Of a stretch of DNA of 64,000 nucleotides, positions 1 to 17,818 are shown piece by piece. Origin of the DNA: Thermodesulfobacteriota bacterium (GTDB taxonomy: Bacteria > Desulfobacterota > GWC2-55-46 > JADFVP01); contig JBHHVI010000001.1 of NCBI GenBank assembly GCA_046754225.1, forward strand, positions 5,776 through 69,775, in the 5' to 3' direction. Numbering within the stretch: position 1 is the first letter of the stretch; each line of letters opens with the position of its first letter. The notes beneath the pieces were generated by a model, which worked only from the letters and a program-made list of their open reading frames with translations, was not told where the DNA came from and searched no databases. The position numbers were made by a program, and so were the translations under genes.

Positions 1-465
1 GACACGCTGGCCCAGAAACTGGGCATCGGATACGACAAGCATCAGTTTTACAACGAATACCATCCCAAGTTGAAGCCGGTGGAGACGGTAACGGCGGGCA
101 TATACCTCGCCGGCACCTGCATGGGGCCCATGGATATACCCGAGAGCGTGGCGCAGGGCAGCGCCACGGCGAGCAAGGTCCTCGCCCTCTTCAGCGCCGA
201 CGAGATGGCGAGAGAGCCCATTACGGCCCTTGTGAACGAGCAGACCTGCAACGCCTGCTGGGACTGCGTCGTCGCCTGCCCCTACACGGCCATTGAAAAG
301 ACAGAAGTAAAGGACAGGCAGGGTAACGTCATAAGGATGCTCGCCCATGTGAACGAGGGGGTCTGCACGGGGTGCGGCACATGCGTCTGCGCCTGCAGGA
401 GCAAGGCCATAGACCTGAAGGGCTACACCGACGAACAGGTCTACGAGGCGTTGGCGGCCTTTTAA
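1..465 (+). CDS. hdrA: Heterodisulfide reductase subunit A (HdrA), C-terminal fragment; the 5' end is cut off by the window edge
   Basis: The reading frame is open from nt 1 (DTLAQKLGIGYDKHQF...). The C-terminus has a two-[4Fe-4S] ferredoxin domain (CNACWDCVVACP and CTGCGTCVCAC) typical of HdrA. The MvhD gene lies immediately downstream. Confidence 0.8.
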   Translation, partial: DTLAQKLGIGYDKHQFYNEYHPKLKPVETVTAGIYLAGTCMGPMDIPESVAQGSATASKVLALFSADEMAREPITALVNEQTCNACWDCVVACPYTAIEKTEVKDRQGNVIRMLAHVNEGVCTGCGTCVCACRSKAIDLKGYTDEQVYEALAAF

Positions 466-509
466 GGGGCCTGCTACGAATGCTGAATAAAAAACGGGAT
501 TAATAAAAA

Positions 510-974
510 ATGGCTACAGATAAAATAACGGAAGAAAAGGCGGCTGAGCCCGCCGAGGGCTTTGAGCCGAAGATAATGGCCTTTGTCTGCAACTGGTGCA
601 CCTATGCCGGGGCGGACCTCGCCGGGACTTCAAGGATGGAGTACAGGCCCAACGTCAGGATAGTAAAACTACCATGCACGGGGAGAATTGACCCGCTATT
701 TATTATAAAGGCCTTTGAGAACGGGGCCGACGGCGTGCTCGTGTCAGGATGCCACCCCGGGGACTGCCACTACACAGCCGGGAACTACCACGCCCGGAGG
801 CGCTGGATAGCCTTCAGGAGCTTAATGGAATTCACAGGCATAGACATGAAGAGGCTCCACTTCTCATGGATATCGGCCTCTGAGGCGATAAAATGGGTGG
901 ACCTCATAAATAACGTCACCGACGAAGTAAAGAAACTGGGGCCCTTCATGGAGTATAAGGGGCTGAGGGAATAA
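510..974 (+). CDS. mvhD: Methyl-viologen-reducing hydrogenase delta subunit-like protein (MvhD/FlxD family)
   Basis: 154 aa with the conserved Cys pattern FVCNWCTYAGADLAG...KLPCTGR...SGCHPGDCHY of MvhD. It follows hdrA. Confidence 0.8.
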   Translation: MATDKITEEKAAEPAEGFEPKIMAFVCNWCTYAGADLAGTSRMEYRPNVRIVKLPCTGRIDPLFIIKAFENGADGVLVSGCHPGDCHYTAGNYHARRRWIAFRSLMEFTGIDMKRLHFSWISASEAIKWVDLINNVTDEVKKLGPFMEYKGLRE

Positions 975-975
975 C

Positions 976-1884
976 ATGGATATGGAAGATACCTTAAGAA
1001 AAAAGGCCGCCGAACTACTCGCCTCCGGTGAGGTAAAGGTCGTAATAGGATACGGGTGGAACAGGAATAAGACTTACGTGACGCCCGTCTTCATCACAAA
1101 GCCCGAGGAAACGGGCAAACTCGTCTTCAACGCGCTTTGCGTCAACAACCTCTCCGTCTATCTTACGCGGAAGTACAAGGACATCCAGGCCATGGGAAGG
1201 CCCGCAATAGTCGCCAAGGGGTGCGACATAAAGAACATCGCAGTCCTTATCTCCGAAAGCCAGGTAAAGAGAGAGGACGTCTATATCATAGGCATGACCT
1301 GCACAGGCGTCGCATACAAGCAGGAACTCCTGAAGGGGGCCAAGGGGGAGCTCGCCCCTGAGATAATGCCCGTAAAATGCCATAACTGCGACGTACGTAA
1401 CCCCCACGTGACGGACTTCGTCGTGGGCGAGAAGGTCGACTTCACGCCTCCCGAAGAGCCCGCGGGCATGGTATTCGACAAGATAAAGGAGCTGGACAAG
1501 ATGGACACGGCCGGGCGCTGGTCCTTCTGGATGGAGGAGTTCACGAGGTGCATAAAATGCTACGCATGCAGGCAGGTCTGCTCGCTCTGCTACTGCGAGA
1601 GGTGCATCACCGAGAAGAACATGCCCCAGTGGGTGGAGACGAGCGCGCACCCCAGGGGCAACCTCTCATGGAACCTGATACGGGCCATGCATCTGGCCGG
1701 CAGATGCACATTCTGCGGGGAGTGCGAGAGGGCCTGTCCGGCCAACATAAAACTGAACCTCGTGAACCAGAAACTTGTCCTCACCGTAAAGGACGCCTTT
1801 GATTACAGTTCGGGAATGGACGAAAAGATCCACCCGCCCATGATAGTCTACAGCCCCGACGACACTGATAACTTTATAAAGTAA
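976..1884 (+). CDS. Fe-S protein of the F420-hydrogenase/dehydrogenase beta (FrhB/FlxC-like) family
   Basis: 302 aa. The C-terminus carries two ferredoxin-type clusters (CIKCYACRQVCSLCYCERC and CTFCGECERACP). It sits between MvhD and the AsrA-like gene, 1 nt after the mvhD stop. Confidence 0.5.
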   Translation: MDMEDTLRKKAAELLASGEVKVVIGYGWNRNKTYVTPVFITKPEETGKLVFNALCVNNLSVYLTRKYKDIQAMGRPAIVAKGCDIKNIAVLISESQVKREDVYIIGMTCTGVAYKQELLKGAKGELAPEIMPVKCHNCDVRNPHVTDFVVGEKVDFTPPEEPAGMVFDKIKELDKMDTAGRWSFWMEEFTRCIKCYACRQVCSLCYCERCITEKNMPQWVETSAHPRGNLSWNLIRAMHLAGRCTFCGECERACPANIKLNLVNQKLVLTVKDAFDYSSGMDEKIHPPMIVYSPDDTDNFIK

Positions 1885-1916
1885 GAGCTAACCCTTATAG
1901 AGACCTTATAGAGATA

Positions 1917-2939
1917 ATGACCGAAAAGATATTAAAGAAAGCGGATATAGATAAACTCCGCGCCTCCGTGACAGGTTCGGGGGGAGTATTTGTCGCCCCC
2001 GCCGTAAAGGCGCGCCAGGTGGTCTATAAAGAGATAACCGGCGCCGGGGATATGGCAGGGCAGTACATAATCCCCGAGAACTCCTACAAGGAGGTAGTAT
2101 TCCCGCAGACGGAGGTGGTGGCACGGTTCGCCATCAATAAGGACGGAATAGACCTCGCCGGCACTCAGCTCTCCCCGCCCGATACCGTCGTCTTCGGTGC
2201 GAGGCCCTGCGAGGCGGCGAGTCTTAAGTCCCTGAAGAGCGTCTTCACCTGGGACTTTATCGACGAGTTCTACACGAGGCGGGAAGAGAAACTCGTTGTA
2301 ATAACCATAGGCTGCGTCAAGGCCGACGAGGAGTGTTTCTGCACCACCGTGGAGCTGTCGCCTGAGACGACTGACGGGGCCGATATCTATTTGAGAGAGG
2401 ATGAAAAAGGGGATTTTTTAGCGAAAGCCGTAACCGACACGGGCAAGGCCTTCCTTGAAAAGCACGGAGACGTCTTCACCGATAAACCGAAAGCAAAAGC
2501 GAAGCTGAAGGACCTCATAATGCCCGAGAGGATAGAAGGCGTTGACCATGAGAAGATAAGCGCCTGGCTCGCCGACAAAGAGAATTACGAAGCCCCCCTC
2601 TGGGCGGAGCTTACGAGAAAATGCATAGGCTGCGGCGCCTGCACCTTCAGTTGCCCCACATGCCACTGCTTCGACATCACCGACGAGGGCGCGGCCTTCG
2701 AGGGCGAGAGGAGGAAGAACTGGGACGCGTGCCAGTTCGACCACTTTACGCTCCACGCGACGGGCCATAACCCCAGGGACGCCCAGTTCAAGAGGTGGCG
2801 GAACCGCTTCATGTGCAAATTCAACTTCTATCCCAACAAGTTCAAGTCAACGGGCTGCGTGGGCTGCGGCCGCTGCATAAGGGTCTGCCCCGTAAGGCTC
2901 GACATAACAGAGGTAATGGAAGAGATTTCAAAGGCGTAA
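1917..2939 (+). CDS. 4Fe-4S dicluster protein of the AsrA/HydB/FlxB-like family (sulfhydrogenase beta / anaerobic sulfite reductase A-like)
   Basis: 340 aa with CxxCxxCxxxCP motifs (CIGCGACTFSCPTC, CVGCGRCIRVCP). It is followed by its usual FAD/NAD partner. Confidence 0.55.
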   Translation: MTEKILKKADIDKLRASVTGSGGVFVAPAVKARQVVYKEITGAGDMAGQYIIPENSYKEVVFPQTEVVARFAINKDGIDLAGTQLSPPDTVVFGARPCEAASLKSLKSVFTWDFIDEFYTRREEKLVVITIGCVKADEECFCTTVELSPETTDGADIYLREDEKGDFLAKAVTDTGKAFLEKHGDVFTDKPKAKAKLKDLIMPERIEGVDHEKISAWLADKENYEAPLWAELTRKCIGCGACTFSCPTCHCFDITDEGAAFEGERRKNWDACQFDHFTLHATGHNPRDAQFKRWRNRFMCKFNFYPNKFKSTGCVGCGRCIRVCPVRLDITEVMEEISKA

Positions 2940-2956
2940 AGGGACGACATATTCTC

Positions 2957-3805
2957 ATGAACGTTAAGACCATGGAAAACTTATACCTGCCGAAACTCGT
3001 AACGATAGAGGACCTCTACGAAGAGACGCCCGACGTAAAGAGTTTCAGGCTCGTCTTCCATGACGAAAAACTCCGCGAGAGCTTTGATTTCAAGACCGGC
3101 CAGTTCGGACTCTACTCGGCCTTCGGCCTCGGGGAGTCTACCTTCTGCATATCATCGGCGCCCACCCGGAAGGGGTATATCCAGTGCACCTTCAGAAAGA
3201 CGGGGCGCGTCACCGGCGGACTCTTCAACCTCGGCATCGGCGACACCCTGGGCTTCAGGGGCCCCTTCGGCAACCACTTCCCCATCGAACAGTGGAAGGG
3301 CAAGGACATCGTATTCGTGGCCGGTGGCATCGGGCTGCCTCCCGTCCGCTCGGTAATATGGAACTGTCTCGACAGAAGAGAGGAGTTCGGTGAGATTACC
3401 GTTGTATACGGCGCGCGGACGGTGGCGGACCTCGTCTACAAGAACGAACTCTCCCACTGGGACGACCGTTCCGACGTAAACATCCACCAGACGGTGGACC
3501 CCGGCGGGGAGACGCCCGACTGGGGTGGCCAGGTCGGCTTCGTCCCCAAGGTCCTTGAGGAGGTGGCCCCGAAACCGGATAATACCGTGGCCGTAATATG
3601 CGGCCCCCCCATAATGATAAAGTTTTCCCTCAACGTACTTGAGGAGCTCGGCTTTTCGGATGAAAACGTATACACCACCCTTGAGAACAAAATGAAGTGC
3701 GGTGTGGGCAAGTGCGGCAGATGCAACGTGGGCGATATCTACATCTGCAAGGAAGGGCCCGTCTATACTGCGGCAGAGATAAAAAAGATGTACAACGATT
3801 TTTAG
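2957..3805 (+). CDS. FAD/NAD(P)-binding oxidoreductase with a C-terminal 2Fe-2S domain (AsrB/HydG/FlxA/PyrK-like)
   Basis: It has the ferredoxin-NADP-reductase fold motifs (RLVFHDEK..., GGIGLPPVRS) and a C-terminal CGVGKCGRCNVGDIYICKEGP motif. The start was placed at the ATG at 2957; the six-frame ORF extends back to 2795 and overlaps the upstream gene. Confidence 0.65.
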   Translation: MNVKTMENLYLPKLVTIEDLYEETPDVKSFRLVFHDEKLRESFDFKTGQFGLYSAFGLGESTFCISSAPTRKGYIQCTFRKTGRVTGGLFNLGIGDTLGFRGPFGNHFPIEQWKGKDIVFVAGGIGLPPVRSVIWNCLDRREEFGEITVVYGARTVADLVYKNELSHWDDRSDVNIHQTVDPGGETPDWGGQVGFVPKVLEEVAPKPDNTVAVICGPPIMIKFSLNVLEELGFSDENVYTTLENKMKCGVGKCGRCNVGDIYICKEGPVYTAAEIKKMYNDF

Positions 3806-3981
3806 TTTTTACGGAAAAACCGCCCCTTGGCGCCTGACAAGGCCCCTGGTAGTCAAAAGGAGCGCAGAGGCGGTCTTTTCAAAAACATATGCGCTCAAGA
3901 AAAACGTCAATAAAAGGAAATAGGGGTATATTTTTCAGGGTTTTTCATGTATCATTAGTACCCCTTCCGGCCTGAAATTCT

Positions 3982-4785
3982 ATGGAGAAGACAATGGGCG
4001 ACAGTAAAACAAAAAAAACAAAACCGTTGACCACGGGTGACAGGACCATCCCCCCCGAAGGCGCGAAGATGATAACCATCTATATAATGGGCAGGGAGTA
4101 TCAGGTCCCCGAGACGCTGACCATTATGAAGGCCATCGAATACGCCGGCTACAAGTATGTAAGGGGCTGCGGGTGCAGGGGCGGAATATGCGGCGCCTGC
4201 GCGACATTTTACCGTTTTACGGGGGACTACAGGCTTAAGACGGGGCTCGCCTGCCAGACGGTGGCCCAGCCCGACATGATAATAATGCAGCTCCCCTTCT
4301 TTCCGTCAAACAGGCCCGATTACGACCTCGAAAAAATCAAAAGCACCCCTCATGAAGAGCTGAGGAGCCTGTACCCCGAGGTCTTCAAGTGCGTGGGCTG
4401 CGGCACATGCACGAGGACCTGCCCCATGGATATAGACGTTATGGACTATATAGCCCTCATGAAGAGGGGCGATCTCAAGGGCGCGGCTCTTAAGAGTTTT
4501 GACTGCGTCCTCTGCGGGCTTTGCGCATCGAGGTGCCCGGCCCAAATTTCCCAGTTCACGGCGGCCATGTACGTAAGAAGGCTTTACGCCAAGGTGATGA
4601 CACCCGCGGCCGCGCACCTGAAGAAGCGCGTCGATGAGATTGAGGGCGGAAAATACGTGGAGTTGCTCTCGAAGCTTACCGCCATGAACCCCGATGACGT
4701 GAGAAAGCTTTATGTGGAGAGGGAAAGGGAGCCGGATATGTCCGAGCCGGGCGAATGGATGCCCGAGGACAAGGAGAATCTTTAA
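3982..4785 (+). CDS. Succinate dehydrogenase/fumarate reductase iron-sulfur subunit-like protein (2Fe-2S followed by two CxxCxxCxxxCP clusters)
   Basis: 267 aa with CGCRGGICGACA, then CVGCGTCTRTCP and CVLCGLCASRCP. An alternative start lies at 4069 (MITIY). It is paired with the flavoprotein downstream. Confidence 0.6.
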   Translation: MEKTMGDSKTKKTKPLTTGDRTIPPEGAKMITIYIMGREYQVPETLTIMKAIEYAGYKYVRGCGCRGGICGACATFYRFTGDYRLKTGLACQTVAQPDMIIMQLPFFPSNRPDYDLEKIKSTPHEELRSLYPEVFKCVGCGTCTRTCPMDIDVMDYIALMKRGDLKGAALKSFDCVLCGLCASRCPAQISQFTAAMYVRRLYAKVMTPAAAHLKKRVDEIEGGKYVELLSKLTAMNPDDVRKLYVEREREPDMSEPGEWMPEDKENL

Positions 4786-4838
4786 AGGGTCGATGATTAT
4801 CGGCATAAAAAATATTTCTTTTTAGTCAAGGAGTAAAG

Positions 4839-6488
4839 ATGAGCGGATATTCGGCTTCTTTGATGGAGCTTATAAAAAAAGTTGAGGCCACGAGGCCAGC
4901 GCGGGTTGAGCAGGCCCGAAAGGGCGAGCACTTCCCTTCCCTCACCATGGACGAAAGGCAGGACCGTCTGGGTAAATACCACCCGGACTTTAAGGAAGAG
5001 GGGCGGAGAAAGGTCCTTGTAGGGCCTAATAAAGGGAACGTCCTTCCCGAAGAGGTGGCCGGAGTGCTCGAATCGAAGTCGAGGCTCGACCCCTCGAAGA
5101 TAGACCTCTCCAAAGCGGACTATGAGACGGACGTGCTCGTAATAGGCGCGGGCGGGGCCGGAACGGCGGCGGCGCTGACGGCGGCGGAGGCGGGGCGTAA
5201 GGTTATCGTCTCGACAAAACTCCGCCACGGCGACTCGAACACGGTCATGGCCGAAGGCGGCATACAGGCGGCGGACCAGGAATGCGACTCGCCCTATTTT
5301 CACTACCTCGACGTAATCGGCGGCGGCCATTTCTCCAACCAGACGGGGCTCGTGGCGGCACTCACAAACGACGCCCCTCTTATAATACACTGGCTCGAGG
5401 GTCTCGGCATGATGTTCGACAAGCACCCCGGCGGCCGCATGAGGGTGCGTCACGGCGGGGGCACTTCAAGGAAGAGGATGCACTCATCGGGGGATATGAC
5501 GGGGGCCGAGATAATGAGGGTCTTGAGGGACGAGGCCCGTAACAGGACCGAAGGGATAAAGATACTCGAGTTCACCCCGGCCGTGGAACTCCTCCTCGAC
5601 GAAAAGGGGCGCGTAGCCGGAGCCGTACTCTACAACCTGGAGACGAAGGAATATTATATTGTAAAGGCCGGGTCCGTGATAATCGCCACAGGGGGCTTCG
5701 GCAGGCTCCACATCCAGGGTTTCCCCACTACAAACCATTACGGCGCCACCGCTGACGGTGTCGTCATAGCCTACAGGGCCGGGGCGAAACTTTCCGACAT
5801 GGACTCCACACAGTACCACCCCACGGGCGCGGTATTCCCCGAGCAGAACGTGGGGCTCCTTATTACGGAGAAGGTCAGGGGCCTCGGCGCCCAGCTTGTG
5901 AACATTAAGGGCGAGCAGTTCTGCTTCCCCCTTGAGCCGAGGGACGTGGAATCGTCGTGCATCATAAGGGAATGCCTCGATGTGGGTTCAGGCGTAATGA
6001 CGCCCACGGGGCGCTACGGCGTCTGGCTTGACTCGCCCATGATTGACCTCCTCCACGGCGAGGGTACGGTGAGGAGTGAACTCCCGGCGAAATACATACA
6101 GTTCAAACGTTACAACATCGACATAACGAGGCTCCCCATGCTCATCTATCCCACCCTCCATTACCAGAACGGCGGGCTCGGTATCGACGACACGGGCAGG
6201 GCGGACGTAGAGGGGCTCTTCGCCGCCGGAGAGGTGGCGGGGGGAGTGCACGGCAGGAACCGCCTCATGGGCAACTCGCTCCTCGACATACTCGTCTTCG
6301 GAAGGAGGGCCGGAAGGGCAGCGGCCGAATACGCCGCCGGGACAAAACCCGGCAAAAGACTTTCACTCAGCCACGTCGAGGCCTTCGATAAGGAGCTCCG
6401 CAAGGCCGGCATTAAAGGAGCCCAGGCCGGCCCCGTGCTCCTGCCGGACTACTCCCCCGAGCATGTCGCTACGAGACAGTGGGACTGA
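4839..6488 (+). CDS. FAD-dependent flavoprotein of the fumarate reductase/succinate dehydrogenase/AprA/NadB superfamily (anchor-less, probably soluble)
   Basis: The FAD dinucleotide motif VLVIGAGGAGTAAAL is present, with RHGDSNTVMAEGGIQAA near the position of the covalent-FAD His loop, and a conserved C-terminal GEVAGGVHGRNRLMGNSLLD. An AAGGAG ribosome-binding site sits 9 nt before the ATG. Confidence 0.7.
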   Translation: MSGYSASLMELIKKVEATRPARVEQARKGEHFPSLTMDERQDRLGKYHPDFKEEGRRKVLVGPNKGNVLPEEVAGVLESKSRLDPSKIDLSKADYETDVLVIGAGGAGTAAALTAAEAGRKVIVSTKLRHGDSNTVMAEGGIQAADQECDSPYFHYLDVIGGGHFSNQTGLVAALTNDAPLIIHWLEGLGMMFDKHPGGRMRVRHGGGTSRKRMHSSGDMTGAEIMRVLRDEARNRTEGIKILEFTPAVELLLDEKGRVAGAVLYNLETKEYYIVKAGSVIIATGGFGRLHIQGFPTTNHYGATADGVVIAYRAGAKLSDMDSTQYHPTGAVFPEQNVGLLITEKVRGLGAQLVNIKGEQFCFPLEPRDVESSCIIRECLDVGSGVMTPTGRYGVWLDSPMIDLLHGEGTVRSELPAKYIQFKRYNIDITRLPMLIYPTLHYQNGGLGIDDTGRADVEGLFAAGEVAGGVHGRNRLMGNSLLDILVFGRRAGRAAAEYAAGTKPGKRLSLSHVEAFDKELRKAGIKGAQAGPVLLPDYSPEHVATRQWD

Positions 6489-6544
6489 AGAAGCCATGTT
6501 ACGTGATCCGTAAAATTGGCAAAAATCTTTAAAGGGGATTATTT

Positions 6545-7714
6545 ATGAACATCCACGAGTATCAGGCGAAGGAGATTCTCGCGAGGTTCGGCGTACCTGT
6601 ACCGAAAGGCCGTATCGCCTTCACCCCCGCCGAGGCCGAAGAGGCGTCAAGGGAATTTTTTGAAGAAGGGACAAGCGGCGTATGCGTGGTCAAGGCCCAG
6701 ATACACGCCGGAGGAAGGGGCAAGGCCGGTGGAGTAAAACTCGCCAAGTCGCGTGAGGAGGCCGCAGGCTTCGCAAAGGAAATCCTCGGCGCCACCCTCG
6801 TCACGCACCAGACCGGACCGGCCGGAAAAGAGGTTAAAAAGGTCCTCATAGAGCAAGGGTGCCGCATAAAAAAAGAGTTTTACCTGAGCCTTGTCGTTGA
6901 CAGGTCCACTGACAGGGTTACCGTAATGGCCTCAAGGGAGGGCGGCGTCGAGATAGAAGAGGTGGCGGCCCGGAGCCCTGAAAAGATATTAAAGGAATCA
7001 ATCGACCCGGCCACGGGGCTCATACCATTTCAGGGAAGAAAAATAGCCTTCGCCCTGGGACTCGACAAGAAGGCCGTGGGCAAGGCCGTCAAACTCATCT
7101 CGGGACTTTATAATGCCTTTGTGGAGAGCGACTGCTCGCTCCTTGAGATAAACCCCCTCGTCCTCACCGAAGAGGGGGACCTCCTCGCCATCGACGCGAA
7201 GATTTCGCTCGACGACAGCGCCCTCTTCAGGCACAAGGATATCGAGGGCATGCGTGACCTCGACGAGGAGGACCCGGGCGAGATAGAGGCCTCGAGACAC
7301 GGCCTGAACTACGTATCCCTTGACGGGCATATCGGCTGCATGGTAAACGGCGCCGGCCTCGCCATGGCCACCATGGACATAATAAAACTCTACGGAGGAA
7401 ACCCTGCCAACTTCCTCGACGTGGGAGGAGGCGCCACGAAGGAGCAGGTCACGGCCGCCTTCAAGATACTCGTGGCCGACCCCCGCGTTAAATGCATCTT
7501 CGTAAACATATTCGGAGGCATAATGCGCTGCGACATAATAGCCGAGGGCATTGCGGCGGCGGCGAAGGAAGTGGGGCTAAGCGTCCCCCTCGTAGTGAGA
7601 CTACAGGGCACCAATGTGGAAAAGGGCAGAGAGATATTGTCGAATTCGGGCATCGACATCATCACGGCCGAGCATATGGACGAGGCGGCTGAAAAGGCAG
7701 TGGCGGCGGGTTAG
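6545..7714 (+). CDS. sucC: Succinyl-CoA synthetase beta subunit
   Basis: [22 protein letters not shown]..., the ATP-grasp N-terminus typical of SucC. It is followed by sucD. Confidence 0.9.
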
Positions 7715-7753
7715 TTTTTTAATATCGAACTGAAAAAAGCGGAGCATTTTATA

Positions 7754-8629
7754 ATGAGCATTCTCGTAAATCAGGACACAAAGGTAATCTGTCAGGGCAT
7801 CACCGGCGAACAGGGCACGTTCCATACCCGCCAGATGGTGGAATACGGCACCAATATGGTGGGGGGCGTAACTCCGGGCAAGGGCGGCGTCGAGGTGGAC
7901 GGCATACCGGTCTTCAACACGGTGGACGAGGCGGTCAGGAAGACGGGCGCCGACGCCACTGTAATATATGTGCCGGCCCCCTTCGCCGCCGACGCCGTAA
8001 TGGAGGCCGTAGACGCCGGCGTACGTCTCGTTATCTGCATAACCGAGGGCATACCCGTGGTGGACATGGTTAAGGTCAAGAGGTTCATGGACGGCACGCT
8101 CTCAAGGCTTGTGGGGCCGAATTGTCCCGGCGTGATAACCCCGGGCGAGTGTAAAATAGGCATTATGCCCGGCCACATCCACAAAAAGGGCAAGGTGGGG
8201 GTCGTGTCAAGGAGCGGCACCCTCACCTACGAGGCCGTAGACCAGCTCACAAGAACGGGGCTCGGTCAATCCACCTGCGTGGGCATAGGCGGAGACCCGG
8301 TGAACGGAACGAATTTTATAGACGTACTTGAGATGTTTGAAAAGGACGCCGATACCGAGGCCGTTGTGATGATAGGGGAGATCGGCGGCACCGCCGAGGA
8401 AGAGGCGTCTGTATTCATAAAAGAAAATATGACGAAACCCGTCGTCGGGTATATAGCGGGCGTTACCGCCCCGAAGGGAAAGAGGATGGGACACGCCGGG
8501 GCTATAATATCCGGCGGGAAGGGCACGGCGGCGGAAAAGATGGCCGCTATGGAGGAGGCAGGCATCAGCGTCACGAAAAGCCCGGCGGATATAGGCAAGA
8601 CCATAGTTGAAGTCCTTAAAAAAGTCTAA
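7754..8629 (+). CDS. sucD: Succinyl-CoA synthetase alpha subunit
   Basis: [24 protein letters not shown]..., a CoA-binding domain with the conserved phosphohistidine region. Confidence 0.9.
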
Positions 8630-8645
8630 TTTCGCTCATTAGCGG

Positions 8646-8674
8646 TTGACGCGCGCCGGGGTTCGTGATAAAAA
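8646..8674 (+). promoter_or_regulatory. Candidate sigma70-type promoter (TTGACG-N17-TAAAAA) upstream of korD
   Basis: Hexamers were read by eye in the sucD-korD intergenic region. The -10 hexamer is weak. Confidence 0.25.
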
Positions 8675-8764
8675 AGAAATTCGCAAAAATATCGATTTAA
8701 GCAAAAAAAGCGGCCTGTTATAATAAAAAAACTCACCAGCCAAACATTACGGGGTTATGGGGTC

Positions 8765-8971
8765 ATGATGGTAGAAGCGGCGAAAAAACTTCCAAACATA
8801 GTAATAAACGAAAAGTTCTGTAAGGGATGCAGTATCTGTGTGGACTTCTGCCCCACCAACGTACTTGAGATGAAGGGTTCCATATGCGCTGTAAAGGACC
8901 TTGATGCCTGCACAAGATGCCAGCTCTGCGATCTCCGCTGTCCGGACTTCGCCATCCAGGTATTTGATTGA
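8765..8971 (+). CDS. korD: 2-oxoglutarate:ferredoxin oxidoreductase delta subunit (2x[4Fe-4S] ferredoxin)
   Basis: 68 aa with CKGCSICVDFCP and CTRCQLCDLRCP. It immediately precedes korA. Confidence 0.75.
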   Translation: MMVEAAKKLPNIVINEKFCKGCSICVDFCPTNVLEMKGSICAVKDLDACTRCQLCDLRCPDFAIQVFD

Positions 8972-9022
8972 TCTTTAATGACAGAGCCTTACCATTACCA
9001 TTCTTGAGGGGTTTAAGAAAAC

Positions 9023-10159
9023 ATGTCAAAAAAAAGAATGAAAAAACTTTTGCAGGGCAACGAGGCCTGCGCCGAAGGGGCGCTTTACGCCGGTTGCAAG
9101 TTCTTTGCCGGTTACCCCATAACACCTTCCACTGAAATAGCCGAGATTATGAGCGTAAGGCTTCCCAAGGTGGGCGGCAAGTTCATACAGATGGAGGACG
9201 AGATAGCATCGTTAGGTGCGGTCCTCGGGGCCTCACTTGCCGGAAAAAAGAGCCTCACCGCCACTTCCGGGCCGGGCTTGTCACTCAAGCAGGAGGCCCT
9301 GGGCTACGGATGTATAGCCGAGATACCCTGTGTCATAGTTGATGTCATGAGGGGCGGCCCTTCGACGGGATACCCCACGGGGCCTTCCCAGTCCGACATT
9401 ATGCAGGCCAAGTGGGGCACCCACGGAGACCACCCGGCGGTGGCCATAACACCGGCCTACGTTCAGGAGATACTTACCGAGACTATAAGGGCCTTTAATA
9501 TAGCGGAAAAATACAGAACCCCCGTCATCATTCTTTACGACGAGGTGGTGGGGCACATGAGGGAGCCCATAGAGATACCCGAGCCCGGAGACTACGAGGT
9601 CGTAGACAGGGCCAGGCCCGATTGCTCACCCGAAGATTACCTCCCTTACGACGAAAAATACCTCGTCCCCCCGCTCGCCCCCTTCGGTGAAGGGTACCGT
9701 TTCCATGTGACCGGACTCAACCATAAGGCCGACGGGTTCCCCGTCAACGACTCCAATGTCATAGACGCGAACAACCGCAAAATCATGAGAAAGATCGATG
9801 ACAACATCGACGATATCGCCAAGAACGAAGAGATCTGTCTCGATGACGCCGAGATCGTTGTATTCACCGTAGGCTCCACTTCAAGGTCTGCGCGCTACGC
9901 CGTGAACGCCGCGAGGGAGAAGGGCATAAAAGCGGGCCTCCTGAGGCCGCTCACCATATGGCCCTTCCCTGACAGGATTGTGGGCGAACTGGCGAAGAGG
10001 GTAAAGGCCTTCATAGTGCCGGAGATGAACCTCGGGCAGATGGTCCTCGAAGTAAAGCGCGCCTCAGAGGGCGCCTGCGCGGTAGAGGGGATACACCGCG
10101 TGGACGGTGAGATGATAAACCCCGCGCAGATTCTTGACGTCATAAATAAATACACCTAA
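9023..10159 (+). CDS. korA: 2-oxoacid:ferredoxin oxidoreductase alpha subunit
   Basis: 378 aa. The N-terminus MSKKRMKKLLQGNEACAEGALYAGCKFFAGYPITPS is typical of KorA/PorA. Confidence 0.85.
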   Translation: MSKKRMKKLLQGNEACAEGALYAGCKFFAGYPITPSTEIAEIMSVRLPKVGGKFIQMEDEIASLGAVLGASLAGKKSLTATSGPGLSLKQEALGYGCIAEIPCVIVDVMRGGPSTGYPTGPSQSDIMQAKWGTHGDHPAVAITPAYVQEILTETIRAFNIAEKYRTPVIILYDEVVGHMREPIEIPEPGDYEVVDRARPDCSPEDYLPYDEKYLVPPLAPFGEGYRFHVTGLNHKADGFPVNDSNVIDANNRKIMRKIDDNIDDIAKNEEICLDDAEIVVFTVGSTSRSARYAVNAAREKGIKAGLLRPLTIWPFPDRIVGELAKRVKAFIVPEMNLGQMVLEVKRASEGACAVEGIHRVDGEMINPAQILDVINKYT

Positions 10160-10185
10160 CTAACGAAGAAAGGTCGGAGGTAATT

Positions 10186-11040
10186 ATGGGTGCACCGGCG
10201 GTCAAACAGAAAGTAAGCGTACCCTTTGATTATAATAAGTACTTAAGGAAGGATAAACTCCCCCATATATGGTGCCCGGGCTGCGGTCACGGGATCGTGC
10301 TGAAGTCGCTTTTGAGGGCCATAGACAAGGGCGGACTCAAAAAGGACGATATATGCATGGTCTCCGGCATCGGGTGTTCGAGCAGGACCCCGGGGTACGT
10401 GGACTTCAACACCCTCCATACGATCCACGGACGCGCCTTTGCCTTCGCCACCGGCGTGAAACTGGCGAAACCGGAACTTAACGTCATGGTGGTCTCAGGC
10501 GACGGAGACGCCCTCGCCATAGGCGGAAACCACTTCATACATGTCTGTAGAAGAAATATCGACATGACCATCCTCGTATACAGCAACTCCATCTACGGCA
10601 TGACCGGGGGCCAGTACTCGCCCACGACGCCAGAGGGTTCCGTGGCCACTACAAGCCGCTACGGCAACATAGAGCCGCCCTTCGACTGCTGTGAGATGGC
10701 CAAGGCCGCCGGCGCCACATTCGTCGCCAGGGGGACCGCCTACCATACGCTTGAGCTGGAGAAGATCCTCCTTGAGGCCATAAACCACAAGGGCACATCC
10801 GTCGTGGAGATAATCGACTCATGCCCCATATATTACGGCCGCATGAACAAGTTCAAGAGCGCGAGCCAGATGATGGAAATAATCGAAAAAGAAGGCACCG
10901 TATCGGTTAAACAGGCCGACAGACTCCCCCCTGAGAAGGTCGAGGGCAAAGACCTCCGGGGTATTCTTCACAGGGCTGAAAGGCCGGAATATTGCGAAAA
11001 TTACGACAACCTTATCGTCGGCAAGGCAACGGCAAAATAG
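10186..11040 (+). CDS. korB: 2-oxoacid:ferredoxin oxidoreductase beta subunit (TPP-binding)
   Basis: It has CPGCGHG and the GDG...N TPP-binding motif. Confidence 0.85.
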   Translation: MGAPAVKQKVSVPFDYNKYLRKDKLPHIWCPGCGHGIVLKSLLRAIDKGGLKKDDICMVSGIGCSSRTPGYVDFNTLHTIHGRAFAFATGVKLAKPELNVMVVSGDGDALAIGGNHFIHVCRRNIDMTILVYSNSIYGMTGGQYSPTTPEGSVATTSRYGNIEPPFDCCEMAKAAGATFVARGTAYHTLELEKILLEAINHKGTSVVEIIDSCPIYYGRMNKFKSASQMMEIIEKEGTVSVKQADRLPPEKVEGKDLRGILHRAERPEYCENYDNLIVGKATAK

Positions 11041-11168
11041 TGCCTTTTAAGAGGGAGCGCTTACGATAGCCGCATTTACGATAAGGCCGCATTGGTCTCA
11101 GGCGACAGTCTAAATAGAGTGGTTCGCCGGGTTCACCGTTTATCATTAAGAGGAGGTCTTTAAATACA

Positions 11169-11720
11169 ATGGGCGCGAGATACGAGATACGCTTCAGCGG
11201 ATCAGGCGGCCAGGGCATGATACTCGCCGGTATCGTCATGGCCGAAGCCGCATCCATTTACAGCGACAAGAACGCGGCGCAGAGCCAGTCCTACGGGCCT
11301 GAATCAAGGGGCGGAGCGAGCAAGGCCGAGGTCATTATAAGCGACCAGGCCATAGACTACCCCAAGGCCACCTCCATAGATTGCATGCTCGCCCTTACGC
11401 AGCAGGCCTGCAGTAAATACCATGGGGACATCAAAAAGGGCGGCATCCTGCTTATAGATTCCGACGAGGTGAAGGACGTTCCCCAGGGGGACTTCAAGCT
11501 TATGAGTTTCCCCATCATAGAGACTGCGCGCACGGCACTTGGAAAGACCATCGTCGCCAACATCATATCTCTGGGCATGATAACGGAGCTCACAGGCGTA
11601 GTCACCCACGAGGCCATGGAACAGGCCGTTCTTTCCAGGGTGCCCAAGCCATTCCTCGACCTCAACAAGAAGGCTCTTCAGATAGGCTTTGAAAAGGCCA
11701 GGGAGTTGAAAGGCTCTTAG
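11169..11720 (+). CDS. korC: 2-oxoacid:ferredoxin oxidoreductase gamma subunit
   Basis: 183 aa. IRFSGSGGQGMILAG is the start typical of a gamma subunit. Confidence 0.8.
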   Translation: MGARYEIRFSGSGGQGMILAGIVMAEAASIYSDKNAAQSQSYGPESRGGASKAEVIISDQAIDYPKATSIDCMLALTQQACSKYHGDIKKGGILLIDSDEVKDVPQGDFKLMSFPIIETARTALGKTIVANIISLGMITELTGVVTHEAMEQAVLSRVPKPFLDLNKKALQIGFEKARELKGS

Positions 11721-11893
11721 CCGGCACTTATCACTCCGGGCCGGAATAACCTCCGGCCTTTTTTACATAAAACCCCTTTTGTAAATTCAGTGAACTCTCG
11801 GTAAAGATTTTTCATACAAAAGAATTGAAATACATCCTTGACACAGAGCAGTGAGAGTCCCGGGAGGTTATTCTGGTTATCCATGATCTCATA

Positions 11894-13543
11894 GTGGTCG
11901 GAGGGGGGCTCGCAGGGATGAGGGCCGCCATAGAGGCCGCAAAGGGCGGACTCAACGTGGCTCTCGTCACCAAGGTCTATCCCGTAAGGAGCCATTCCGT
12001 GGCCGCACAGGGGGGGATAAACGCCGCCCTCAAGGCCGAGGACTCCTGGCAGGACCACATGCACGACACCGTAAAGGGGAGCGATTTCCTCGCCGACCAG
12101 GACGCCGTGGAGGTCCTCTGCAAGGAGGCCCCAGAGGATATCCTCGAGATAGAGTCCATGGGCGGCATCTTCAGCCGCGACCCTTCCGGCGACATAGCCC
12201 AGAGGCCTTTCGGCGCCGCGAGTTTTCCCAGGACCTGTTATCTCTCCGACAGGACGGGGCACAGTCTCGTCCACGTCCTCTACGAACAACTCCTTAAATA
12301 CGCCGTCGTTGTGTACGAGGAATGGTACGTTATAAAACTCGTCGTCGAGGAGAATATAACACGCGGCATAATCGCCTATGAGCTCTCGAGCGGGAAACTC
12401 CACCGCCTCCACTCAAAGGCGGTCCTTCTCGCCACAGGGGGCTACGGCCGGGTTTATAAAACTACGACCAACGCCCTCACCTCAACGGGTGACGGCATGG
12501 GGCTCGCGCTGACTGCCGGGGCCGAGCTCATGGATATGGAGTTCGTCCAGTTCCATCCCACGGTGCTGAAACGCACGGGCATACTTATGACCGAGGGGGC
12601 AAGGGGCGAGGGAGGATACCTCCTTAACTCAAAGGGTGAGCGGTTCATGGAGCGCTACGCCCCCCATGCCCTCGAGCTGGCAAGCCGCGACGTGGTATCA
12701 AGGGCGGAGCAGACCGAGATAGAGGAAGGCAGGGGCGTTGACGGCTGCGTGCTCCTCGATATCAGGCATCTCGGAAGAGAAAAAATACTGGAGCGCCTCA
12801 GCCAGATCCGCGACCTCGCCATCGACTTCGCCGGGGTAGACCCCGTGGAGGAGCCTATCCCCGTACGGCCCGGAGCACATTATTCCATGGGCGGCATCAA
12901 GACGGACGTGGACGGGGCCACGTCCGTTACAGGGCTCTACGCCGCGGGTGAATGCGCATGTGTGAGCGTACACGGCGCCAACAGGTTAGGGGGCAACTCG
13001 CTCCTTGAAACGATCGTCTTCGGCAGGCGCGCCGGGGCGAAGGCCGTGGAGTTCGCAGAGAACTCTCCCCTCTCGGACTTCCCTGAAAGCTTCCTGAAGG
13101 ATACGGCCAATGAAATCGCCGACATGGTAAAGGTTGAAAACGGGGAGACCGCCTACTTGATAATGAATGAACTGAAAGAGACGATGGAGGAATGCTGCGG
13201 CGTCTTCAGGGACAGAGAAAGGGTCACGAGGGGGCTTAACAAGGTAAAAGAACTGAAGGAGCGTTTCCCGCGTATTTCGCTCTCGGACAGGAACGACTAT
13301 TTCAATACCGAGCTCCCCGGTCTCATCGAACTTAAAAACATGCTCGACATCTCCGAGGCGATCCTCATGGGCGCCGTTGAGAGGAGAGAGTCCAGGGGCT
13401 CTCACTGCAGGACAGGTTTTCCAGGTCGTGACGACAAGAACTGGCTCAAGCATACCACGATAAAAAAAGAAGGCGGCGGGTATAAACTTGGATACCGCGA
13501 GGTAACCATAACAAAATTCCAGCCTGAGGAAAGAAAATACTAA
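11894..13543 (+). CDS. frdA: Fumarate reductase/succinate dehydrogenase flavoprotein subunit
   Basis: [12 protein letters not shown]...[14 protein letters not shown] (covalent-FAD His) ...HYSMGGI...[12 protein letters not shown]. Nt 11894 is GTG. The frame stays open upstream as HDLIVVGGG, so the true start is probably a non-ATG codon near 11870-11880, downstream of a GGGAGG at 11862-11867. Confidence 0.85.
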
Positions 13544-13573
13544 GCCGGTATAATTAATAAATTCTTCTGAACA

Positions 13574-14536
13574 ATGAAAATACAGATAAAGATAAAACGC
13601 TTCAACCCCTCGGAAGGCGAATCCAGTGAGCCTTACATACAGGCCTATAACGTAAAAGCGGCCGCCGGGATGAGTATCCTTGAAGCGCTCCTGAAGATCG
13701 CCGAAGAGGAAGACCCCACCCTCGGCTTCAGAAGGTCCTGCAGGTCCGCCATATGCGGGTCCTGCGCCGTAAAGATAAACGGCTTCTCGAAACTCGCCTG
13801 CAAGACGCAGATAATCCCGGAATACAAAAAGCAGGGAGCGCTCCTCATAGAGCCCCTCGCAAACTACCCGGTCCTTAAAGACCTTATAGTGGGCTTTGAC
13901 AGGTTCTGGAATAACATGGGTAAGGTTACGCCCTACCTGACGCCGGCGGCCGGGGCCCTGCACATGGAAAAAATAACCAAAGAGGACGCCGACAGGATAG
14001 ACAGTTCTCAGAAATGCATCATGTGCGGCTCGTGCAACTCCGAGTGTAACGCCCTTGAAATCGACTCCCATTATATAGGCCCCTCGGCGCTGGCCAAGGC
14101 GTGGAGGTTCGTAGGCGACGTGCGGGAGGGGGCGCCGGAAAAGAGGCTCAGGCGCATGAGCGCCGAGCACGGCATGTGGGACTGCGTGAGATGCGTGCAC
14201 TGCACCCAGTACTGCCCCAAACAGGTGGCGCCTTTAAAACAGATAGAGAGACTCCGCTCGGGGGCCATAAAGAAGGGGCTCCATGACAACCCCGGGGCCA
14301 AGCACGTCCTCTCCATGTCGAACTCCATAAAGCGCGTGGGACGCCTCGACGAGGCGGCTATGACCTTCAAGACCCTCGGGTTTCTAAGGTCTCTGGGCAT
14401 GATACCCTTCGGGATAAAGATGGAGATCCACGGCAAGATGCCCAAGCCCCTCATATTTTCCCAGATAGGCGGTATCGATGAAGTCAAAAAGATATATGAA
14501 GAGATTGAAGGGGCAGAGGCGGAGGAGAAAAAATAG
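13574..14536 (+). CDS. frdB: Fumarate reductase/succinate dehydrogenase iron-sulfur subunit
   Basis: A 2Fe-2S motif (CRSAICGSCAVKING) is followed by CIMCGSCNSEC and CVRCVHCTQYCP. Confidence 0.85.
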   Translation: MKIQIKIKRFNPSEGESSEPYIQAYNVKAAAGMSILEALLKIAEEEDPTLGFRRSCRSAICGSCAVKINGFSKLACKTQIIPEYKKQGALLIEPLANYPVLKDLIVGFDRFWNNMGKVTPYLTPAAGALHMEKITKEDADRIDSSQKCIMCGSCNSECNALEIDSHYIGPSALAKAWRFVGDVREGAPEKRLRRMSAEHGMWDCVRCVHCTQYCPKQVAPLKQIERLRSGAIKKGLHDNPGAKHVLSMSNSIKRVGRLDEAAMTFKTLGFLRSLGMIPFGIKMEIHGKMPKPLIFSQIGGIDEVKKIYEEIEGAEAEEKK

Positions 14537-14542
14537 GTTACA

Positions 14543-15415
14543 ATGGATAAACTGAAGTACGCATATTATCCCGGCTGCGCCTCCAGTGAGATGACCAAAG
14601 AGGCCAACGATACGACACGGCTGGTGGCCTCGGCCCTCGGCATTGAACTTCGTGATATGCCCAGGGCGAACTGCTGCGGCGCCGGGCTCATGAAGGACTA
14701 CGACTATGACCTCAACATAGCGCTTAACGCCCGCATCTTCGCCGAGGCCGAGGTGATGGGCCTTGATATCATGACCATATGCTCAACGTGTCTCATGGTG
14801 ATGAGTACGGCCAACAGGGACTTGAAGCGCGACGCCGGGCTCCTCGAAAGGACAAACCTGATACTTGAAAGGGCCGGGCTCCATTACAGCGGAAAGGTTG
14901 AGGTAACGCAGCTTCTCTGGGTCCTCGCGAAGGATTACGGTCTTGAAAACCTCAAGCGGCAGGTGACCAAGCCGCTCAACTGGCTCAAGGTAGCGCCCTT
15001 TTACGGTTGCCACAGCCTGAGGCCATCGGACGCCCTCGGCTTTGACGACCCGGAAAAACCTGAGTCTCTCGAGTCGGTCATAAAGGCCGTGGGGGCCGAT
15101 GTGGTGGATTACAAGGGAAAGACCAAATGCTGCGGTTTTCAGATTAACCTTGTAAGTGAGGATACGGCGGTGGGCATGACGGGAACGAGGCTGCTTGACG
15201 CCAAGGCAGGCGGCGCAAGGTGCGTGGTGACCCCATGCCCTTTCTGCCACATAAACCTCGATAACTACCAGGGGTTGGCGGAGAAAAAGGTAATGCATAT
15301 GATAGGCCTGCCCGTATTTCACCTGCCCCAGCTTGTGGGCCTGGCGATGGGGCTCACGGCCGAGGAGATGGGGCTCTCGCGCCACCTCGTAAGCATGGAA
15401 GGGATTTACAGGTAA
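14543..15415 (+). CDS. HdrB-like CCG-domain subunit (SdhE/FrdE of type-E succinate:quinone oxidoreductases)
   Basis: 290 aa with two cysteine-rich CCG-type domains (YYPGCAS...CCGAG and YGCHS...CCGF...CPFCHINLD), directly after frdAB. Confidence 0.75.
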   Translation: MDKLKYAYYPGCASSEMTKEANDTTRLVASALGIELRDMPRANCCGAGLMKDYDYDLNIALNARIFAEAEVMGLDIMTICSTCLMVMSTANRDLKRDAGLLERTNLILERAGLHYSGKVEVTQLLWVLAKDYGLENLKRQVTKPLNWLKVAPFYGCHSLRPSDALGFDDPEKPESLESVIKAVGADVVDYKGKTKCCGFQINLVSEDTAVGMTGTRLLDAKAGGARCVVTPCPFCHINLDNYQGLAEKKVMHMIGLPVFHLPQLVGLAMGLTAEEMGLSRHLVSMEGIYR

Positions 15416-15506: not shown

Positions 15507-16172
15507 CTAATACTTCGAGATATTCAACTCCTCCATCTTACCCGTTACCATGTAGACCACCCTTTCGGCTATGTTGGTAACCCTGTCGGCTATTCTCTCG
15601 AGGTTGTGCGCGGCCCATATAAGGTGCGTGGCGCCCTCGATTATCTTCGGGTTTTCTATCATCATCAGGAGAAGCTCCCTGTAAATCTGGTCGTAGAGAG
15701 CGTCAACCTTATCATCGTCACCGCAGACCTTGCGCGCCGACTTTACGTCTTTCGCCATAAAGGCCTCCATTGTCCTGCTGAGCATGTCTCCCGCTATCTC
15801 GGCCATCCTGGGCAGGTCTATAAGGGGCTTGACGAGGGGGTCGTCCCCTATGAGTATGCTTATCTTCGCTATCCCTTCGGCATGGTCGCCTATCCTCTCG
15901 AGGTCGGTTATTATGTTTATCACGGCTCCGAGCATCCTCAAGTCCTTTGCCATGGGCTGCTGCGTGGCGATAAGCATCATGCACTCTTTCTCTATATTAA
16001 AGCGCAACTTGTTTATACGGGCGTCGTCCTTGACGACCTTCTTGGAAGCCGCCAGATCGCGCGTCTTGAGCGCCTCCATCGCTTTATTCAGCGCCACGCC
16101 GACCATCTCGCCCATCTTAAGGAGTTCTTCCCGAAGGTCCTTAAGCGCCTTATGGTACGCCTTTCTCGTCAT
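15507..16172 (-). CDS. phoU: Phosphate signalling complex protein PhoU
   Basis: 221 aa with PhoU repeats (…ITDLERIGDHAEGIAK… and …LERIADRVTNIAERV…). Confidence 0.9.
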   Translation of the reverse strand: MTRKAYHKALKDLREELLKMGEMVGVALNKAMEALKTRDLAASKKVVKDDARINKLRFNIEKECMMLIATQQPMAKDLRMLGAVINIITDLERIGDHAEGIAKISILIGDDPLVKPLIDLPRMAEIAGDMLSRTMEAFMAKDVKSARKVCGDDDKVDALYDQIYRELLLMMIENPKIIEGATHLIWAAHNLERIADRVTNIAERVVYMVTGKMEELNISKY

Positions 16173-16210
16173 CTCTCCTCCATTGTCTTAAAAAGATTTA
16201 CCTTTATCTC

Positions 16211-17817: not shown

Positions 17818-17818
17818 A

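Follow-up and report, generated by a model that had tools for sequence, protein, structure and literature searches.

The first 6,488 nucleotides of the 64,000-nucleotide stretch of DNA analysed here, hereafter called the window (contig JBHHVI010000001.1 of a Thermodesulfobacteriota bacterium), carry seven co-directional genes on the + strand, running from the 3′ end of hdrA to the gene of a 549-residue FrdA-like flavoprotein. We lean towards reading this block as the distal two-thirds of an operon for soluble redox proteins, where a candidate NADH-oxidising, electron-bifurcating Flx-Hdr module would be joined to an anchor-less fumarate reductase resembling TfrAB. The original prediction for these genes—a fumarate reductase that is soluble, linked to NADH and possibly bifurcating—is a reasonable one and, in our view, the best reading of the sequence, and it is supported by the co-conservation of the genes in other genomes. 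The open reading frame calls, together with searches of the window proteins against the Pfam and NCBIfam profile models, give the following features.

1–465, + strand: 3′ end of hdrA (last 154 codons), comprising the end of the flavin adenine dinucleotide (FAD) domain and the C-terminal 2x[4Fe-4S] ferredoxin domain
510–974, + strand: mvhD/flxD, MvhD-type [2Fe-2S] electron-transfer subunit, 154 residues (Pfam FlpD, E 5.8e-52, full length)
976–1884, + strand: flxC-like iron–sulfur (Fe-S) protein, 302 residues, with Fer4 motifs; it adjoins mvhD in the relatives too
1917–2939, + strand: flxB-like Fe-S protein of the HydB/AsrA type, 340 residues (Fer4_22, E 9e-31)
2957 or 2972–3805, + strand: flxA-like NAD(P)H:FAD oxidoreductase with a C-terminal 2Fe-2S site, about 280 residues (profile matches)
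3982–4785, + strand: putative Fe-S subunit of the reductase, 267 residues (Fer2, Fer4_9 and Fer4_7; weak TfrB and dhsB matches)
4839–6488, + strand: FrdA/TfrA-like flavoprotein, 549 residues (FAD_binding_2, PF00890, E 2.5e-76, residues 98–481)

The seven genes, their content and their tight spacing are as originally described, with intergenic gaps of 44, 1, 32, 17, 176 and 53 nucleotides. The hdrA fragment matches the NCBIfam HdrA2 model (E 2.5e-37, model positions 498–638) and is nearly identical to the C-terminus of the complete 657-residue HdrA in a close relative (locus L004); position 1 of the window falls about 500 codons inside the gene. All four Flx subunits of the FlxABCD-HdrABC complex have counterparts, recognised by NAD_binding_1 (E 2.6e-17) and DHODB_Fe-S_bind (E 2.2e-8) for FlxA, Fer4_22 for FlxB, Fer4 for FlxC and FlpD for FlxD. 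The FlxA-like protein also matches the PRK08345, HydG and AsrB models (E 1e-57 to 1e-75), and the FlxB-like protein matches the HydB, ShyB and AsrA models (E 1e-39 to 1e-44), every one of these latter matches lying under its cut-off. Translation of flxA starts at ATG 2957 or 2972; the listed open reading frame from 2795 overlaps the preceding gene, and the orthologue in L004 begins MENLY. The 302-residue protein, originally called FrhB-like, is indeed an Fe-S protein, while its resemblance to FrhB is weak (FrhB_FdhB_C, PF04432, E 0.0015, under the Pfam cut-off). A hydrophobic-stretch check predicted no membrane segment in any subunit of the block, and the terminator-like sites on the + strand of positions 1–11737 are only weak and intragenic. 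The description of an anchor-less FrdB/FrdA-like pair joined to Hdr, Mvh and Flx genes in one conserved co-directional block, uninterrupted by terminators, is borne out.

The 267-residue Fe-S protein contains one plant-type 2Fe-2S motif and two CxxCxxCxxxCP motifs, and it lacks a CCG domain. In cluster make-up, it resembles the N-terminal half of TfrB. The four cysteines of its third motif predict a second 4Fe-4S cluster rather than a 3Fe-4S cluster, and the protein has no match to Fer2_3 (PF13085), the domain of SdhB and FrdB, but only to the generic Fer2 model (E 2.5e-4). It also differs from the single TfrB polypeptide, which combines FrdB-like clusters with two CCG domains: in the relatives of the window, the CCG domains reside on a separate HdrB, and no HdrB–Fe-S fusion of the TfrB type was found in the best 80 loci searched. 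A search of representative proteins yielded a natural fusion of another kind (P0122, 727 residues), in which the 2Fe-2S/2x[4Fe-4S] protein forms the N-terminus of the flavoprotein. This fusion shows that the two proteins presumably act as one unit.

How is the flavoprotein related to the known dicarboxylate-handling flavoenzymes? Its residues 1–95 form an N-terminal extension that is conserved in the family (HPDY and GPNxG motifs) and is absent in other FAD_binding_2 proteins. Its scores against the curated NCBIfam models all lie under the cut-offs. The best of them is TfrA (NF004900; 333 bits against a cut-off of 718, model positions 5–410 of 546); the SdhA/FrdA subfamily (TIGR01812) scores 281 against 567 and NadB (TIGR00551) 278 against 453. 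As in complex II flavoproteins, the FAD_binding_2 domain is accompanied by the dicarboxylate-binding and catalytic His, Arg and Thr-Glu residues. In an alignment to the Salmonella NadB structure, H244, T259, E260, R263, H351 and R386 of NadB correspond to H327, T343, E344, R347, H441 and R475, all of which are invariant within the flavoprotein family, as is R368; the PRD motif containing R368 aligns to the catalytic arginine of the canonical FrdA encoded further downstream in the window. Two other complex II features are missing: Succ_DH_flav_C (PF02910) has no match in the 549-residue protein, and the histidine that binds FAD covalently is replaced by Asn134 (DSNTVMAEGG, with SNT in place of the SHS of the canonical FrdA). 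In work on His44 mutants of E. coli FrdA, non-covalent FAD reportedly goes with fumarate reduction, not with succinate oxidation; the replacement by asparagine agrees better with a reductase than with a succinate oxidase.

The family also forms a clade of its own, apart from NadB, canonical SdhA/FrdA and bona fide TfrA, in a neighbour-joining tree built on BLOSUM distances with outgroups labelled by NCBIfam, the deep branching order of which is unreliable. Three known identities were considered and rejected. NadB is excluded by the model score, by the position of NadB Glu121—presumably specific to aspartate oxidases—which is an invariant glycine (Gly206) in the family, by the placement outside the clade of the proteins that pass TIGR00551 (P0258, P0227 and P0218), and by the adjacent Fe-S partner; NadB is not known to have such a partner. 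No AprA family is among the best 25 of the 79 NCBIfam matches, and AprA-like proteins are essentially unrelated; the only sulfonucleotide-reductase-type chain among the solved structures that aligned to the flavoprotein is the alpha subunit of PAPS reductase, with 35 bits. Membership in the true TfrA clade is ruled out by score, coverage and tree position, as P0183, a true TfrA, reaches 765 bits and groups in a different clade. Model scores, structure-chain alignment and tree therefore agree that the flavoprotein is neither NadB nor AprA, either of which had been named at the outset as an outcome that would speak against the original prediction. A search of 1.84 billion cluster representatives returned a handful of full-length family clusters (44–57% identity), below which come generic relatives of about 40% identity with alignments starting at residue 95. 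The flavoprotein thus appears to represent a distinct clade, usually mislabelled as TfrA or SdhA.

In order to examine the conservation of the neighbourhood, we scanned one genome per species, which gave at least 600 pattern-matching stretches, at least 573 of them encoding a relative of the flavoprotein. The census described below covers the best 80 of these relatives (54–81% identical over the full length); the neighbouring genes were identified by tblastn, and many of the contigs are truncated. The 80 loci include Desulfobacterota, Nitrospirales, Dehalococcoidia, Anaerolineae, Cloacimonadota, Aminicenantes, Bacillota, Spirochaetota, Gallionellales, Thermoplasmata, Theionarchaea and Culexarchaeia, among others. 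The Fe-S gene lies directly 5′ of the flavoprotein gene in 77 of the 80, and at least one co-directional hdr or mvhD gene lies within 10 kb in 63, so the neighbourhood is conserved. HdrB was found in 49 loci, HdrC in 45, HdrA in 48 and MvhD in 46, as compared to FlxA or FlxB in 18–19; across the phyla, no other partner accompanies the Fe-S/flavoprotein pair as constantly as hdrCB. Genes of the tricarboxylic acid (TCA) cycle type recur as well (KorABC in 23–25 loci, FumAB in 10–14, SucCD in 10–12), and a malic enzyme gene is present in eight. Among the 51 loci with any HdrB-like gene, 48 have one and three have two, and 55 neighbouring HdrB proteins all keep the ten cysteines of both CCG motifs.

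In ten of the 80 loci (L022, L034–L036, L049, L052, L059, L069, L074 and L077), the large and small subunits of an Mvh/Vhu-type NiFe hydrogenase replace Flx; these loci carry a maturation protease gene and hdrCBA-mvhD-FeS-flavoprotein, with no Flx genes. They would represent an H2-fed version of the same system. The donor module is exchangeable (Flx or Mvh), while the acceptor module, HdrCB with the Fe-S/flavoprotein pair, is constant, and an exchangeable input is the pattern expected of an HdrA-centred bifurcating complex. We tentatively propose, at slightly less than even confidence, that the pair and HdrCB constitute a dedicated terminal module, through which HdrA-based bifurcating complexes could use fumarate directly as the high-potential acceptor, without a free thiol, and with either NADH (Flx) or H2 (Mvh) as the donor. 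The hosts of the hydrogenase-type loci include Neomarinimicrobiota, Cloacimonadota, Thermoplasmata and Acetothermia.

Several further variants were observed. The cultured acetogen Sporomusa rhizae DSM 16652 has a stand-alone nine-gene operon, hdrB-hdrC-hdrA-mvhD-flxC-flxB-flxA-FeS-flavoprotein (L081 2691–11608, NZ_CP156925), which has no TCA genes close by and a pyruvate:ferredoxin oxidoreductase gene 4 kb downstream. In a third architecture (L009, L011, L012, L014, L017, L024, L028, L040, L041, L061 and L083), very large HdrA-like proteins of up to about 1,500 residues, with several HdrA-like segments per open reading frame, are followed by mvhD, by a protein 22–27% identical to FlxC and then by the pair. 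The Chromatiaceae and Gallionellales versions have a rubrerythrin-like gene of about 180 codons between the flavoprotein gene and hdrC (L084 3110–3649; L057, L068 and L072 at about 11.7–12.3 kb), which may protect oxygen-sensitive enzymes in microaerophiles. In L001, mvhD is followed by a 73-residue open reading frame that neither the window nor L004 shares.

Do hdrB and hdrC belong to the operon? The original prediction stated that they were absent, which the window does not allow one to read because it starts about 500 codons into hdrA. In relatives gathered by exact-protein look-up and by the scan (L001/L002, L004, L006 and L007, with flavoproteins 75–81% identical), hdrC-hdrB immediately precede hdrA. 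The claim is probably wrong, because fumAB-hdrC-hdrB lie directly 5′ of hdrA in four of the five closest relatives with upstream sequence. The prediction had itself named hdrB and hdrC just outside the window as a finding that would tell against it, and these four relatives show this arrangement; it strikes the “no hdrBC” part of the claim. We consider it very probable that hdrCB precede the hdrA of the window as well. The gene order in the close relatives is (mdh)-fumA-fumB-hdrC-hdrB-hdrA-mvhD-flxC-flxB-flxA-FeS-flavoprotein-sucCD-korDABC-frdAB-sdhE, and, in the window and six related genomes, it tracks the path from malate through fumarate, succinate and succinyl-CoA to 2-oxoglutarate. In the remaining close relative, L005, the hdrCB position (1–1455) is held by small open reading frames, one of them GIY-YIG-type-like, and an extra 169-residue open reading frame lies between mvhD and flxC (4179–4688), which suggests a recent rearrangement or insertion in this operon.

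How might the encoded proteins work together? Taking the close-relative order (mdh)-fumAB-hdrCBA-flxDCBA-[Fe-S + flavoprotein]-sucCD-korDABC as the guide, we infer that the products form one complex. First, FlxA would oxidise NADH. Second, the electrons would pass via FlxB, FlxC and MvhD to the flavin of HdrA, which would split the pair. The low-potential electron would reduce ferredoxin, with which Kor—the presumed consumer of reduced ferredoxin—would carboxylate succinyl-CoA. Finally, HdrC/HdrB and the 267-residue Fe-S protein would pass the high-potential electron on to the flavoprotein, at whose non-covalent FAD fumarate would be reduced to succinate. The overall reaction would be 2 NADH + Fd(ox) + fumarate → 2 NAD+ + Fd(red) + succinate. 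The potentials of NADH, ferredoxin and fumarate are −320 mV, about −450 mV and +30 mV, respectively, from which we compute about −40 kJ/mol; the reverse, a confurcating succinate oxidation, is unfavourable because the forward reaction is exergonic by this amount. The single HdrB per locus favours direct coupling over two Hdr sites, one making and the other consuming a thiol.

Several observations weigh against this reading. No paper that characterises an Hdr-linked or bifurcating fumarate reductase biochemically was found in the literature search, nor were biochemical or genetic data for any member of the cluster. The active-site residues are common to NadB and other dicarboxylate or enoate reductases, so fumarate is a presumed substrate. 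An AlphaFold2 model of the flavoprotein, made from an 18-sequence alignment, is only moderately confident (pLDDT 67), and its Foldseek neighbours (FrdA, SdhA, flavocytochrome c3 (Fcc3) and NadB) added nothing beyond the sequence evidence. The hdrB and hdrC genes are not visible within the window, and L005 has no hdrCB upstream of hdrA, with unrelated small genes filling 1.4 kb. The invariant CCG cysteines of HdrB would suit a working thiol/disulfide site equally well, and the coupling may be indirect, via a thiol. In 11 of the 80 loci, only hdrCB accompany the pair—the smallest recurring unit, hdrC-hdrB-FeS-flavoprotein—with no hdrA within 10 kb; therefore, the reductase can work without bifurcation in some organisms. 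Moreover, the cell could rely mainly on another fumarate reductase, the canonical FrdAB-SdhE, the genes of which lie 5 kb downstream. Lastly, the larger open reading frames scanned elsewhere in the window included no ATP-citrate lyase gene, and a full autotrophic reductive TCA cycle is for this reason not demonstrated.

The strongest alternative, which we nevertheless regard as unlikely, is a thiol loop. Here Flx-HdrABC would reduce ferredoxin and a disulfide (of DsrC or another thiol carrier), and a separate thiol:fumarate reductase would re-oxidise the thiol; this reductase would consist of an HdrB-type CCG site, the Fe-S protein and the flavoprotein, in the manner of TfrAB with CoM-SH and CoB-SH in methanogens. 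The loop is one of the two options given by Rubin-Blum et al. (PMC6315080). In its favour are the rank of TfrA as the top curated model for the flavoprotein (333 bits), the 2Fe-2S and two [4Fe-4S] clusters that the Fe-S protein shares with the N-terminal half of TfrB, the invariant CCG cysteines and the 11 loci with the hdrC-hdrB-FeS-flavoprotein unit and no hdrA. It nevertheless calls for two CCG sites, one reducing and the other oxidising, whereas 48 of 51 loci have a lone HdrB-like gene, and a conserved thiol-carrier gene, looked for in the neighbourhoods, was not found. Moreover, the flavoprotein lies outside the true TfrA clade and lacks the C-terminal third of TfrA. Bacteria are not known to have coenzyme M (CoM) or coenzyme B (CoB).

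An arrangement free of bifurcation appears improbable. In such an arrangement, the pair would be a soluble fumarate reductase fed by ferredoxin or NADH, and the Hdr and Flx proteins would only deliver electrons or be independent neighbours. It accords with the loci having the pair alone (8 of 80) or with only FlxAB (4 of 80), and the reduction of fumarate by NADH is strongly exergonic by itself (−58 kJ/mol; PMC13147460). Against this, HdrA and MvhD, the hallmarks of bifurcation, accompany the pair in 46–48 of the 80 loci, with many of the remaining contigs truncated, and the conserved linkage to the ferredoxin-consuming Kor would be left unexplained. Another substrate (L-aspartate or another enoate or dicarboxylate), or an oxidative succinate dehydrogenase confurcating electrons from succinate and reduced ferredoxin to NAD+, has a similarly poor chance: the family models all under cut-off, the separation of the clade from every characterised enzyme and the nearby FrdAB-SdhE, which could handle fumarate and succinate, leave room for it, but the glycine in place of NadB Glu121 and the Fe-S partner that NadB lacks, the recurrence of fumarase, succinyl-CoA synthetase and Kor as neighbours, the loss of the covalent-FAD histidine, which disfavours succinate oxidation, and the roughly 40 kJ/mol that succinate and reduced ferredoxin would need to yield 2 NADH under standard conditions all oppose it.

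As originally stated, the block is embedded in reductive TCA genes, which continue downstream as follows.

6545–8629, + strand: sucC and sucD, succinyl-CoA synthetase (open reading frames; L001 orthologues with ATP-grasp_2, Ligase_CoA and CoA_binding domains)
8765–11720, + strand: korD (8765–8971), korA, korB and korC, four-subunit 2-oxoglutarate:ferredoxin oxidoreductase (orthologues with POR_N, TPP_enzyme_C and POR domains)
11738–11759, + strand: terminator-like GC-rich hairpin, GGGCCGGAATAACCTCCGGCCT, 8 pairs, 6 of them G-C, then TTTTTT; directly 3′ of korC
11873–15415, + strand: canonical frdA, frdB and a CCG-domain SdhE/HdrB-like gene (profile matches)

The sucCD genes encode the next pathway step after fumarate reduction. 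The strong hairpin at 11738–11759, between the hdr-flx-tfr-suc-kor block and the canonical genes, is probably the 3′ end of the transcription unit of that block, and frdA-frdB-sdhE probably form a separate unit. Their products represent a type-E (non-classical) succinate:quinone/fumarate reductase. The canonical FrdA scores 777 bits against TIGR01812, above the cut-off, with the covalent-FAD histidine and Succ_DH_flav_C present; FrdB has a Fer2_3 domain, and the SdhE-like subunit scores 253 bits against the MFR SdhE-like model. This enzyme probably catalyses the quinone-linked reaction and may do so in the oxidative direction. No ATG, GTG or TTG start preserves the whole Rossmann β1-GxGxxG of the canonical frdA; the listed GTG 11894 reading frame begins with VVGGGLAG. 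Upstream and in frame, a perfect Shine-Dalgarno sequence (GGGAGG, 11862–11867) is followed by ATT 11870 and CTG 11873, so frdA probably uses the rare start codon CTG 11873.

Ten large open reading frames scanned elsewhere in the window are unrelated to the Hdr-Flx-fumarate reductase system. The rest of the window (15507–21420, − strand; 33518–50206) holds ordinary genes, including those for DnaK, a ClpB-type AAA+ chaperone, FtsK, dCTP deaminase, ArgS and GyrB; phoU- and pstB-like reading frames, recognised by eye from the translations, adjoin a phosphate-selective porin. The Rfam and tRNA scans of the window gave a tRNA-His at 46345–46421 as the sole match, and the G+C content falls to 0.47 at 42–44 kb.

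The wider interest of these genes lies in two questions. The source of a ferredoxin reducing enough for 2-oxoglutarate synthase in anaerobes and autotrophs with the reductive cycle is called unresolved in PMC10052474, and the reduction of fumarate in quinone-poor anaerobes is described as an open question in a 2026 survey (PMC13147460), which also summarises the idea of a bifurcating fumarate reductase. Both would be answered by a complex of the Hdr type in which the large free energy of fumarate reduction pays for the reduction of ferredoxin. If the terminal-module reading is true, such complexes would constitute an uncharacterised class of electron-bifurcating enzymes and, within the complex II superfamily, a new branch lacking the membrane anchor, with a terminal module present in well over 500 species-level genomes of more than 15 bacterial and archaeal phyla and supplying ferredoxin to 2-oxoglutarate synthase. 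The idea itself is already published.

The novelty implied in the original prediction accordingly does not hold, as the architecture and its interpretation have been published before. In tubeworm symbionts, Thioflavicoccus mobilis and an aquifer gammaproteobacterium, Rubin-Blum et al. (2019; PMC6315080 and its supplement) found korABCD and “tfrAB” intermingled with flxABCD-hdrABC, and they proposed bifurcation to fumarate reductase and to ferredoxin/2-oxoglutarate:ferredoxin oxidoreductase (OGOR). Mitchell et al. (2024; PMC11636981) reported operon-like co-expression in Endoriftia, with korABCD between hdrA and hdrBC. Williams et al. (2021; PMC8542988) described a version with Mvh-Hdr, thiol:fumarate reductase, OGOR, fumarase and succinyl-CoA synthetase in Cloacimonadota. 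The published carriers include Ca. Endoriftia persephone, the Escarpia symbiont, Thioflavicoccus mobilis and other Chromatiaceae (PMC6315080; PMC11636981). The published “tfrAB” belong to the flavoprotein family described here, because a contig of Thiodictyon (Chromatiaceae) has the published order (FeS-flavoprotein-hdrC-hdrB-korDABC-hdrA-mvhD-flxC-flxB-flxA) and encodes a flavoprotein 58% identical to that of the window. The cluster of the window adds a Desulfobacterota member to this known but still hypothetical Hdr-linked system of fumarate reduction. To the cited literature, we add the breadth of the family, the modular donor and the distinct flavoprotein clade, which fails the TfrA, SdhA/FrdA and NadB tests.

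Like the cluster of Rubin-Blum et al., the window contains a co-directional tfrAB-like pair, flxABCD-like genes, hdrA and korABCD, and the protein families and the proposed function—NADH bifurcation to ferredoxin/OGOR and fumarate reductase—are the same. The arrangements differ in that the order here would be hdr(CB)A-flxDCBA-FeS-flavoprotein-sucCD-korDABC, whereas kor lies between hdrCB and hdrA in the published cluster, where a rubrerythrin-like gene also follows the flavoprotein gene. In addition, the host of the window is an uncultured Desulfobacterota lineage with a canonical FrdAB-SdhE next door, and the window showed no aclAB, pntAB or rnf genes.

With the TfrAB thiol:fumarate reductase of Methanothermobacter (Heim et al. 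1998, cited in PMC6315080 and PMC8542988), the window pair would share a soluble, anchor-less fumarate reductase with 2Fe-2S and two [4Fe-4S] clusters and a link to CCG-type chemistry. In contrast to TfrA, the window flavoprotein has an extra 95-residue N-terminus and matches the TfrA model only at positions 5–410 of 546; in the relatives, the CCG domains are on a separate HdrB with its own HdrC instead of being fused in TfrB, and CoM and CoB are not expected in bacteria. The FlxABCD-HdrABC NADH dehydrogenase/heterodisulfide reductase of Desulfovibrio vulgaris (Ramos et al. 2015, cited in PMC6315080) has the same FlxA, FlxB, FlxC, FlxD (MvhD) and HdrA-like subunits, with NADH as the presumed donor and ferredoxin as the presumed low-potential acceptor. 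In the window, the gene order is reversed, TCA enzymes take the place of the linked alcohol dehydrogenase, and the extra Fe-S/flavoprotein module suggests fumarate, not the DsrC disulfide, as the high-potential acceptor. The HdrA/MvhD/HdrBC core would also be common to MvhAGD-HdrABC of methanogens (Wagner et al. 2017, cited in PMC9723716), while the donor module of the window is Flx (NADH) rather than a hydrogenase, and the acceptor module differs. Finally, the original contrast with the five-subunit soluble NADH-fumarate reductase FrdABCDE of Hydrogenobacter and Aquifex appears right: going by the subunit list in PMC10052474, the genes of that enzyme are dispersed, no HdrA, MvhD or Flx is among its subunits, and the accessory subunits are of other types (in Aquifex, a 60-kDa FrdC, a Nox-like flavoprotein FrdD and a DmsB-like ferredoxin FrdE), so that these subunit descriptions set it apart from the cluster of the window.

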